From: a virus | Lineage: Duplodnaviria; Heunggongvirae; Uroviricota; Caudoviricetes | DNA length: 25,811 nt | Reading direction: 5' to 3' (one strand) | Virus record (IMG/VR): IMGVR_UViG_2778261502_000009 | Part shown: piece after piece, positions 103 to 1,461 of the stretch | How positions within the stretch are numbered: position 1 is the stretch's first letter | Layout: each line of letters begins with the position of its first letter | Notes under the pieces: generated by a model | Told to the model about the DNA's origin: nothing | The model's database searches: none | Seen by the model: only the letters and a program-made list of their open reading frames with translations | Program-made: the position numbers and the translations under genes

Positions 103-1313
103 TATGCAAGCCTCACAATATAGTTAAATGCGATGTTTTTGACGGTGTTTTCCGCGTTACCAGCAGCGTTAACGGTGATGGTGTGTCCATGTGAACCAAT
201 CGCAACGGAGTGCGTATGAGCACCAATACCGACAGTATGCGCGTGTGCACCTGCAGATGCTGCTGTGCCGGACAGTGAATGGCTATGATTACCATCTGTA
301 CTGGTATTCGCTAACCACCCCGTAGACATACCTACTGAGCCTTGTACACCCCAGGTATTTTGACCTGAGCTTGTATAACCATATTGATAAGTATCTTTAA
401 AAACACTGGGGTTAAATCGACGGCCATCTCTATGGCTGTGATTACCAGCTGCATTCGTGCTGCCACTTAAACTATGGGTATGCGCACCAGTGTTATTCGT
501 GGATTTAGTGCCGTAATCAAACGACGATGTGGTTTTCGTCCCCAAATCCGTACTGGATGCGCTGGCGCTGTGGGTATGCGATTTAATGCCGTCCTGTTCC
601 TGAGACAATACGGCCCGACCACTGGCAGGTTTGCCCTTAATCGTCCAGCCACGCATATCAGGGATCACGCCTGACGGATAAGCCGCTGCAAGTTTCGGGT
701 ATGCAGATTTGTCAAAAGCCTGCCCCTGCATCAGGGCATAGCCAGACGGAACGGTATCTGATGGCCACGGGATTGGTGCGCCAGGCGGATAAAACTGCTC
801 TGATGGCGTATAGAGTGAATAAACTGTACCGTCCGTTAACCCTTCCGGCTTATTAGCAGAATATGCTGGTGACGTATGAATCGTCACGCTGGCATTACTG
901 GTATAATCCCATTGAATATTTACACCAGTCGCATAATTTCCGATTGCAACGTAAATATCGTAAGTATCACCAGATGAATTAACCCAGGCAAAATTTGTAA
1001 ACCCTGTCAATGTGCGCTGCCATAAAGCACCAGTAATCCCCTTCGGATTACCATTACCTGCACGTAAAACAAGTTCAGATATACCTGCCTGTTGAGGTGA
1101 CCCCACGTTAAATCCAGCGCCACCAATCAACGTAATTGAAACAACAGAACTCGCCTGTGGCATGGTTACCGTTGCTAATTTGAACCAACCAGCACCACCG
1201 CTGAATGACATTGTTGTTGAGTTAAGCGTACCAATATCTTTCGGCGTCAGTGTTATATCCGCTGAAAGCGCCTTACCATTCACCTTACGGGCAGAAGGTG
1301 CCTTCAAAGACAT
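102..1313 (-). CDS. Side tail fibre protein, C-terminal fragment (native N-terminus deleted); Gly/Ser/Thr-rich with repeated HxH motifs
   Basis: ORF 102..1367. Repeated GAHTHS/GNHSHS/GAHAHT/GSHGHT motifs typical of lambda Stf/T4 gp37-type fibre tips. The ORF 5' end (1297..1367) overlaps the truncated protease reading frame, so the native start is missing; the first available ATG is at 1313. Confidence 0.6.
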
Positions 1314-1461
1314 CGCCACCCGGTGAATTAATATGGAGATTAATGTGGGTGATATCGCCCAGTGCATTCAGATCACTGATAAACTGCTTCGCTGTAACAC
1401 CCCAGAAACCAATCTCGTCATAAATATAAATATCCGCGTCACTCTGGTGACCAGCCTGCAT
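1285..1461 (-). pseudogene. Prohead protease (ClpP/S49-like) gene, truncated after about 54 codons
   Basis: ATG at 1461, 14 nt after the portal stop, encodes [54 protein letters not shown], which reads like a phage prohead protease N-terminus, then ...TFCP-stop. It is part of track ORF 1285..1722. Confidence 0.6.

Follow-up and report, generated by a model that had tools for sequence, protein, structure and literature searches.

A deletion junction in a Qin-like Escherichia coli prophage and its recurrent endpoint in the tail fibre gene stf

Introduction

The locus described here raises the question of how a prophage gene for a prohead protease came to end inside a tail fibre gene, and whether the point of joining was a matter of chance. 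The window, i.e. the whole stretch of DNA analysed, is 25,811 nt long (IMG/VR record IMGVR_UViG_2778261502_000009, Caudoviricetes). It represents the first 25,811 nt of draft contig NLUV01000030.1 (GCA_002233275.1), an identity recorded for contig positions 1..11313, and carries a Qin-like prophage in which a truncated prohead protease/major capsid fusion gene abuts the 3′ part of the tail fibre gene stf. An earlier reading, made without database searches and referred to here as the sequence-only reading, treated the junction as an arbitrary illegitimate one and expected microhomology. This is not supported, as the two sides share one base only and the stf endpoint is common to at least 32 junction types. 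An endpoint that stays fixed in many rearrangements points to a site-specific DNA-breaking activity that disables prophages.

The junction in the window

All genes in the junction part of the window are carried on the minus strand. The features that meet at the junction are as follows.

102..1299, minus strand: retained 3′ part of stf, approximately 399 C-terminal codons, with a Collar domain and a His-rich receptor-binding tip
102..1313, minus strand: chimeric open reading frame stf′, 403 aa, with the ATG at 1313-1311 used by gene callers
1299..1300: crossover dinucleotide, coding strand GAAGG-CA-CCTTCTGCC
1285..1530, minus strand: truncated ClpP-like prohead protease/major capsid fusion gene, an 81-aa open reading frame

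The retained part of stf is 99.7% identical to intact stf genes up to window position 1299. The protein shows 99.2% identity to residues 587-982 of a 982-aa Stf, with Pfam matches to Collar and Phage_fiber. On the other side of the junction, the protease stump consists of 77 native codons (1530..1300), followed by four alien codons (TFCP) and a stop at 1287-1285, all contributed by stf DNA; the stop four codons past the recognisable sequence had thus been read correctly. Residues 29-77 of the stump match Pfam CLP_protease. The intact fusion protein is 675 aa, and a homologue, WP_001136588.1, has the same start. In intact relatives this start is a GTG, at window position 1530, which overlaps the portal gene. 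The sequence-only reading placed the truncation after about 54 codons. The truncation itself stands, but that count begins at an internal ATG at 1461, and the annotated GTG at 1530 gives the 77 native codons.

The first four to five codons of stf′ (MSLK and most of the A codon) are protease gene DNA in another frame and the remainder is stf, which agrees with the earlier view that DNA of the protease side (about 1297..1313) provides the 5′ end of the tail fibre frame. The open frame extends over 102..1367, the long form having 421 aa. The ATG is preceded at 4–9 nt by GGGTGG, a weak Shine-Dalgarno-like sequence, and stf′ may be expressed. The 403-aa product of stf′ is recorded from a single contig, which is listed under two samples; an exact-protein look-up gave no record of the 421-aa form or of a 58-aa truncated protease.

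The parent sequences were compared by BLAST with 5,426 complete E. coli genomes. With window 900-1900 as the query, every head-side match begins at window 1299 with 99.8–100% identity. With window 700-1400 as the query, the matches to stf (99.7%) reach as far as 1299, or 1302 when one mismatch is tolerated. None of the 5,426 genomes spans the junction, and a junction 40-mer has no match among GTDB species representatives. The head module matches phages of the mEp460/cdtI/phi458 type. At the crossover position intact stf has TA and the intact protease gene has CA; the C of the window (1300) comes from the protease gene and the A (1299) is common to both parents. The genome comparison places the breakpoint at 1299/1300, and neither a full-length protease nor an intact stf N-terminus is found.

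Extent of the deletion

E. coli 2014C-3057 (locus L001) carries both flanks in one intact prophage and in the same orientation. A base-by-base alignment shows that 16,340 bp of this prophage are absent from the window and that one base is common at the junction. With a slash at the breakpoint, the three-way alignment reads GAAGGC/ACCTTCTGCC in the window, GAAGGC/ATCGCC in the intact protease gene, and GGTCGGGT/ACCTTCTGCC in intact stf. The missing DNA spans codon 78 of the protease/capsid fusion to codon 587 of the 982-codon stf. Lost are the remainder of the fusion gene, the genes for head-tail joining, every tail gene through J, lom, and stf codons 1-587. The window therefore has the properties of a deletion derivative: its flanks are collinear with and near-identical to those in 2014C-3057, the genes between them are absent, and the frames are truncated on both sides (codon 77 of 675; stf residues ~588-982). 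A single deletion of 15–20 kb had been predicted, with loss of the protease remainder, capsid, tail genes and the 5′ part of stf; both the size and the content are borne out.

What remains of the prophage includes int, xis, exo, dicB/DicF, hok/sok, Q, the genes for lysis, the two terminase subunits and the portal. As no capsid or tail genes are left, the deletion alone renders the prophage defective and unable to build virions. The reference prophage of 2014C-3057 (L001 1-40603) adjoins, in tandem, the int end of a second Qin-like prophage, and has an IS600 between stf and tfa.

The same stf endpoint in other prophages

The stf endpoint lies in the motif GGTCGGG-TA-CC (9-mer GGTCGGGTA), at codons G-R-V. 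This is where the shaft of the fibre gives way to its receptor-binding C-terminal module. Two further short Stf proteins, which fall in the same 90% cluster, switch from unrelated N-termini to stf at this residue; their loci are Rac-like (ynaK::stf′) and K-12-like Qin (ynfO-side::stf′).

IMG/VR was scanned with an stf 24-mer that starts at the breakpoint, which returned 119 loci. The canonical upstream sequence AATGGTCGGGT is present in 97 of these, and in the other 22 (18 types) unrelated DNA abuts the same base. After addition of metagenome contigs, draft genomes and four complete genomes, this form of the gene, termed allele 1, shows 24 junction types in 40 loci. The junctions in the complete genomes are listed below.

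MB06234 (L140): terminase large subunit (TerL)::stf′
YZ_2_2: terminase small subunit (TerS)::stf′
26561: tape measure::stf′
AJ1: downstream of gpJ::stf′

Left partners include the early region near dicB, nohA, two large-terminase types, the portal, the tape measure gene, J, lom, the stf shaft and a P2-like baseplate gene. Where an intact reference existed, the partner was situated 0.28–19.2 kb upstream, in direct orientation with one inverted exception. Together with a second allele described below, there are 32 junction types at the TA of GGTCGGGTA.

The endpoint is sharply defined. Scans designed for breakpoints just downstream found no junctions at +2..+16, and there are no deletion junctions at +26..+100, where the only match was a divergent homologous fibre. 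(Positions are counted outward from the breakpoint, the T of the TA being −1 and the A +1.) The excess at the hotspot dinucleotide is of the order of thousands-fold. Premature stops in the 1.76 kb of stf upstream occur in at most 7 of 99 canonical loci (the 97 from IMG/VR plus L001 and L009). The window junction itself belongs to a familiar class, that of ordinary prophage decay. No description of the hotspot or of its site sequence was found in the literature searched, which covered few older subscription papers.

The hotspot is not confined to lambdoid prophages, because at least one of its deletions (L128) is located in a P2-like baseplate/fibre region. The fibre C-terminal module with its motif is also joined to N-termini of P2-like or other myovirus type (L128, L044, L102 and others; MSTTTRKFKT..., MTVKYYAIL...). 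In a few IMG/VR loci (L127, L063, L065, L125), stf is truncated 35–124 codons upstream of the hotspot, in the GIVQLSSATNS...ATPKAVKAA repeat region. A second copy of the 9-mer, TTTGGTCGGGTACAGCGAG, is found at window 17836-17844 on the minus strand, inside a 339-aa early-region open reading frame (17677..18696). It has 10 nt, GGTCGGGTAC, in common with the stf site, and a near-identical copy is present in one related locus. This copy may be a coincidence, as a 9-mer should occur by chance ~0.2 times in the window.

A second stf allele and K-12 Qin

A second stf allele, allele 2, shows eight junction types including that of K-12 Qin, and the other seven all read TA/ACCGCG; the allele-2 junction scan covered about half of the sequence space. 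All seven allele-2 partners with a known native sequence have a TA core. Alleles 1 and 2 share only GGTCGGGTA, their 150-nt flanks being 35% and 25% identical. To the right of the motif the two alleles differ in sequence, so that the 9-mer, which is mostly lost in the deletion product, must be part of the determinant. Hybrids with an allele-1 left side and an allele-2 right side, which would indicate module swapping, were not found in IMG/VR.

For K-12 Qin, nohD-type genes match up to GAGTGAATATA, which natively continues TCGAAC. The gene for an intact 1,024-aa Stf (HUSEC2011) matches from ACCGCGCTGACAG, which is natively preceded by TCAAAAGGTCGGGTA; the intact allele-2 motif of HUSEC2011 is at L146 2494-2502. 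In K-12 MG1655 (L003 5840-5841), the nohA′::stfQ′ crossover falls within the TA of GGTCGGGTA, immediately after codons G-R-V.

The window and K-12 Qin belong to the same prophage family and have the same gene order: tfa, stf′, packaging, ydfO/gnsB/cspI, lysis, Q, hokD, DicF, dicB and int. In both, the morphogenetic genes are gone in one deletion, and the stf end is placed after G-R-V in GGTCGGG-TA. They differ in the left end, which is in nohA (a lambda Nu1-type small terminase) in K-12 Qin and in the protease/capsid gene in the window. Unlike K-12 Qin, the window keeps TerS (DUF1441 type), TerL and the portal. The partner core is TA in K-12 Qin and CA in the window, and the C-terminal alleles of stf differ, with 76% identity over the last ~240 aa only. 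The earlier statement that K-12 Qin lacks the terminase large subunit and portal is correct; nohA abuts stfQ. The companion statement, that the window has a different deletion endpoint from K-12 Qin, applies to the left end (protease versus nohA) but not to the stf end.

Partner sequences and the crossover rule

The native, unrearranged partner sequence was recovered from other loci for 17 allele-1 junction types. The preferred bases at the partner site are as follows.

−5: C in 10/17 native partners, binomial p 3e-3
−3: G in 10/17 native partners, binomial p 3e-3
−2: G in 9/17 native partners, binomial p 1e-2
−1: T in 15/17 native partners, binomial p 7e-8
+1: A in 15/17 native partners, binomial p 7e-8
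+3: C in 11/17 native partners, binomial p 6e-4

Positions +1 and +3 of the partner fall on the discarded side. The core is TA in 13 of the 17, the other four having CA, CA, TG and TG. In every product the partner sequence runs up to −2 and the stf sequence from +2, and mismatched cores end either as the partner's version (the window, CA) or as the TA of stf (L016, L119, L073). One junction, L150, keeps the partner's T at −2 despite a longer 5-nt match 1 nt to the left. The left flanks of the partners are closer to GGTCGGG than are 656 background TA sites of the same prophage (Mann-Whitney p = 1.3e-5).

Partner sites used in other loci, termed quasi-sites here, are found in the window as follows.

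1915..1931, plus strand: portal gene, GGGCGCTG-TA-AGTGCCG; unused in the window and inverted with respect to stf, recombined in L042/L131
2512..2530, minus strand: portal gene, TCCGGGCGCA-TA-AACAGCC; used in an allele-2 deletion in another contig (L151)
2994..3012, minus strand: start of the portal gene, CATCCCGGG-TA-CCGGCTGG (CCCGGGTACCGG); 8 nt identical to the stf motif, used in deletions L123 and L133
4185..4203, minus strand: terminase large-subunit gene, CAGGGCGGT-TA-TCAACACC; used in a 19.2-kb deletion in L137 and MB06234 (L140), same prophage family

The partner in L042 is portal-gene DNA in inverted orientation. A search for foreign DNA attached to the left of the stf site gave two matches, L130, which is unrelated and due to chance, and L131, which comes from the same metagenome as L042 and reads AATGGTCGGGT/AAGTGCCG. 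L042 has the partner's left side joined to the stf right side, and L131 has the stf left side joined to the partner's right side. The two halves of the partner are contiguous in the reference (L001 37564/37565), and thus the exchange was reciprocal, with no base gained or lost. The overall pattern is that of a primary site with quasi-sites: a fixed endpoint with variable partners, a common core dinucleotide and, in one case, reciprocal products.

Mechanism of the deletion

The deletion in the window was probably, although by no means certainly, a conservative recombinase-type exchange of the stf motif with a loose quasi-site, across an overlap of 2 bp, and not random illegitimate recombination. 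The fixed and unresected end, the strict 2-bp core, the two-sided partner preference, the orientation-dependent outcome and the exact reciprocal pair together argue for conservative site-specific recombination. As each product follows the partner as far as −2 and stf from +2 onward, with mismatched cores resolved either way, the overlap appears to be 2 bp with segregation of a heteroduplex, and a 2-bp overlap points to a serine recombinase. The right end is untouched in all 32 types, which argues for an end protected by protein.

In the mechanism proposed, the DNA would be broken and rejoined within the TA of the stf motif, by a 2-bp staggered, protein-protected break that is presumably of the serine-recombinase type. 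The partner would be a loosely similar quasi-site elsewhere in the prophage, with a TA preceded by C-G-G and followed by Y-C; direct partners would give deletions and inverted partners inversions. In the window the partner core is CA and not TA, the mismatch would have been resolved to CA, and the deletion fused codon 77 of the protease/capsid gene to stf codon 588.

Ordinary illegitimate recombination, by a chance break and join or by slippage at a 1-nt microhomology, would leave the stf endpoint without special meaning. There is indeed one shared base at the window junction, which has been seen in one assembly only, and decay of prophages by random deletions is common. However, 32 types fall at one dinucleotide in two alleles, with none at the sampled positions +2..+16 and +26..+100, and the TA of the partner is far above chance. 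Endpoints are not scattered as expected of a microhomology deletion, the longest match is bypassed in L150, and the inversion in L042/L131 is reciprocal without loss of bases, all of which make this explanation very improbable. The reciprocal inversion is likewise not a product of replication template switching at the hairpin ACCTT-N8-AAGGT. This hairpin, a 5-bp inverted repeat from +1, starts at the breakpoint of allele 1, but its stem is only 5 bp and allele 2 shows the same behaviour with no hairpin, so that very little credence is given to template switching. As to an assembly chimera of a head-gene contig with repeated stf/tfa, the window does start at a contig end in repeated tfa and the exact junction is absent from the 5,426 complete genomes. 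Graph assemblers, however, depend on shared k-mers, and here a single base is common to both sides; in addition, junctions of the same class are present in closed genomes (L140-L143) and in K-12 MG1655, and the window junction follows the common crossover rule. A chimera is considered extremely unlikely.

A more serious alternative, although still an unlikely one, is a sequence-specific nuclease or nickase (homing-endonuclease-like, HUH-type, a defence nuclease or a topoisomerase) that cuts GGTCGGG/TA, with the protected right end then joined either to another break or to a pseudo-site and no dedicated recombinase involved. A fixed endpoint with variable partners is what such an enzyme would produce. 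The determinant seems to be on the left side, which is lost, as in enzymes that read 5′ of the cut; bar L131, only the right side of stf is joined to foreign DNA, and no recombinase site architecture is recognisable. But end-joining in E. coli normally resects both ends, and the stf end is always intact. Partner preference is seen on both sides, including the discarded side (A at +1, 15/17; C at +3, 11/17), and the reciprocal inversion is exact. Products in which −2 is still the partner's base and +2 is already that of stf conflict with the 4-nt stagger of a gyrase-type enzyme, and also with the 6–8-bp overlap of a tyrosine-type enzyme. Cleavage of the KpnI type at GGTACC was considered and rejected: the window has five GGTACC sequences, only that in CGGGTACC is used elsewhere, and most partners have no GGTACC.

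Several observations weigh against a conservative recombinase-type exchange. The window junction rests on a single draft contig, and the one reciprocal pair comes from two metagenome contigs and not from one closed genome. Similarity among partner sites is modest, and many used sites score as ordinary TA sites. The search patterns demanded stf from +1 (A), which hides products with the partner's G at +1. Bar L131, the IMG/VR search found no rearrangement that retains the left side of stf, and the lack of left-side products is explained here only by target size and selection. Dyad symmetry of the motif is limited to GG-TA-CC, the alleles being wholly different to the right of it, and the motif is unlike the e14 pix site CCTTCTCCCAAACC-AA-GGTTT. 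No AAACCNNGGTTT core is present in the intact reference with up to one mismatch, no inverted copy of the site region is found in 127 loci, and there are no inverted stf or tfa duplicates downstream and no invertible segment. Comparisons with pix, att and P2 attP assigned no recombinase to the motif. A pinQ-type gene is linked in only 8/16 junction loci, and PhiR34_1, a complete deposited phage genome that encodes PinQ/R, does not have the motif.

Candidate enzymes

A small serine recombinase of the PinQ/PinR type is the leading candidate for the enzyme, but a weak one, and its involvement is doubtful. Among loci long enough to judge, a pinQ-type gene is found ~1.9–2.5 kb downstream in the 8 of 16 junction loci noted above and in 18 of 52 canonical loci. 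PinQ is 38% identical to PinE and its best partial NCBIfam match is the Mpi invertase family. There are 11 near-identical copies of PinQ (≥95%), and the next relatives in sequenced phages show ~44% identity or less. PinQ and PinR have been reported to be active enzymes of Qin and Rac and, like PinE, to invert the e14 P segment at pix (PMC12529663). The e14 system resembles the exchange proposed here in that a tail fibre gene is split at its constant/variable boundary by a serine-recombinase crossover; they differ in that the pix core is AA, versus GGTCGGG-TA-CC at the hotspot.

Other known sites were compared and rejected. The Din-family site is a 26-bp imperfect dyad with an AAACC-NN-GGTTT centre; e14 pix sites have only CCTTCT[C/G]CC in common with the hotspot and would predict a centre 14 nt inside instead of 1 nt outside. 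Nothing pix-like is found upstream of pinQ in K-12. For the resident integrase, the att regions of the tandem Qin-like prophages and the ends of K-12 Qin are unlike the site. The P2 attP core, AAAAAATAAGCCCGTGTAAGGGAGATT, has GCCCGT..AAGG in common with the right side of allele 1 only, and this resemblance is treated as a coincidence because allele 2, without that sequence, behaves alike.

The Cin recombinase of phage P1 offers a further parallel. According to work by Iida and colleagues, Cin is said to carry out secondary recombination at quasi-cix sites, with localized conversion at the 2-bp crossover. That system reportedly has a fixed site in a tail fibre gene, many weakly similar partners with a common dinucleotide, and conversion of mismatches either way, and orientation decides between deletion and inversion, all as seen at the hotspot. 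Unlike the Cin system, the hotspot has no 26-bp dyad of the cix/gix/pix type and no invertible segment or second cognate site. It is suggested tentatively, as a less likely possibility, that GGTCGGGTA at the shaft/tip boundary may be the cognate crossover site of a recombinase, with PinQ/PinR as suspects, which would normally exchange receptor-binding modules. Promiscuous use of TA quasi-sites would in that case be a major route, programmed by sequence, for the decapitation and domestication of E. coli prophages, K-12 Qin among them.

Significance for prophage decay

In one sample of viral contigs, approximately one in five copies of the tail fibre module (22/119 loci) are remnants cut at the same dinucleotide. 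This accounts for the recurrent pseudogenes annotated as phage tail protein, missing N-terminus, that are fused to terminase, portal, tape-measure and J fragments. The window resembles prophage domestication by deletion in general, in that structural genes are lost while lysis, regulatory and cargo genes are kept. It differs in that the endpoints are set by a DNA motif, with many lineages decaying by the same route. Should a recombinase prove responsible, many E. coli prophages would lose their structural genes in a directed and repeatable way and not by slow random erosion. The receptor-binding fibre tip and its chaperone would then always be left, available to recombine with incoming phages, and recombinases of the PinQ/PinR type would gain a candidate native substrate.

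Other features of the window

The genes that flank the junction features, and the RNA elements of the window, are listed below. The four RNA elements are Rfam gathering-level matches.

1..102, minus strand: 5′ fragment of the tail fibre assembly (chaperone) gene tfa, first 34 codons; its ATG at 102-100 overlaps the stf stop (TAATG)
1475..2983, minus strand: portal gene of the lambda family, intact (Phage_portal_2), left flank, retained
2983..3201, minus strand: 72-aa head-completion gene, left flank of the deletion, retained
3192..5291, minus strand: terminase large subunit (GpA_ATPase/GpA_nuclease), left flank, retained
5300..5857, minus strand: terminase small subunit (DUF1441), left flank, retained
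8289-8674, minus strand: cspA-type thermoregulator leader
11185-11577, minus strand: cspA-type thermoregulator leader
15134-15305, minus strand: sok
21005-21056, plus strand: DicF

Truncation of tfa is due to the assembly and not to biology, because the window starts with the first base of the contig; the break fell in the repeated tfa/pin region, at window 1-102.

A 495-aa P-loop ATPase of the Sll1717 family is encoded beside hok/sok at 15409-16896 on the minus strand (NCBIfam, 251 bits). It shows no Pfam match, and a faint PADLOC candidate, PDC-M28C. Related prophages carry genes for DUF4209, DUF7380 or another AAA ATPase, apparently at the corresponding place, which suggests that this region is a variable cargo or defence slot. 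The Rfam matches to DicF, sok and the two cspA-type leaders confirm the Qin-like regulatory and cargo backbone of the prophage.

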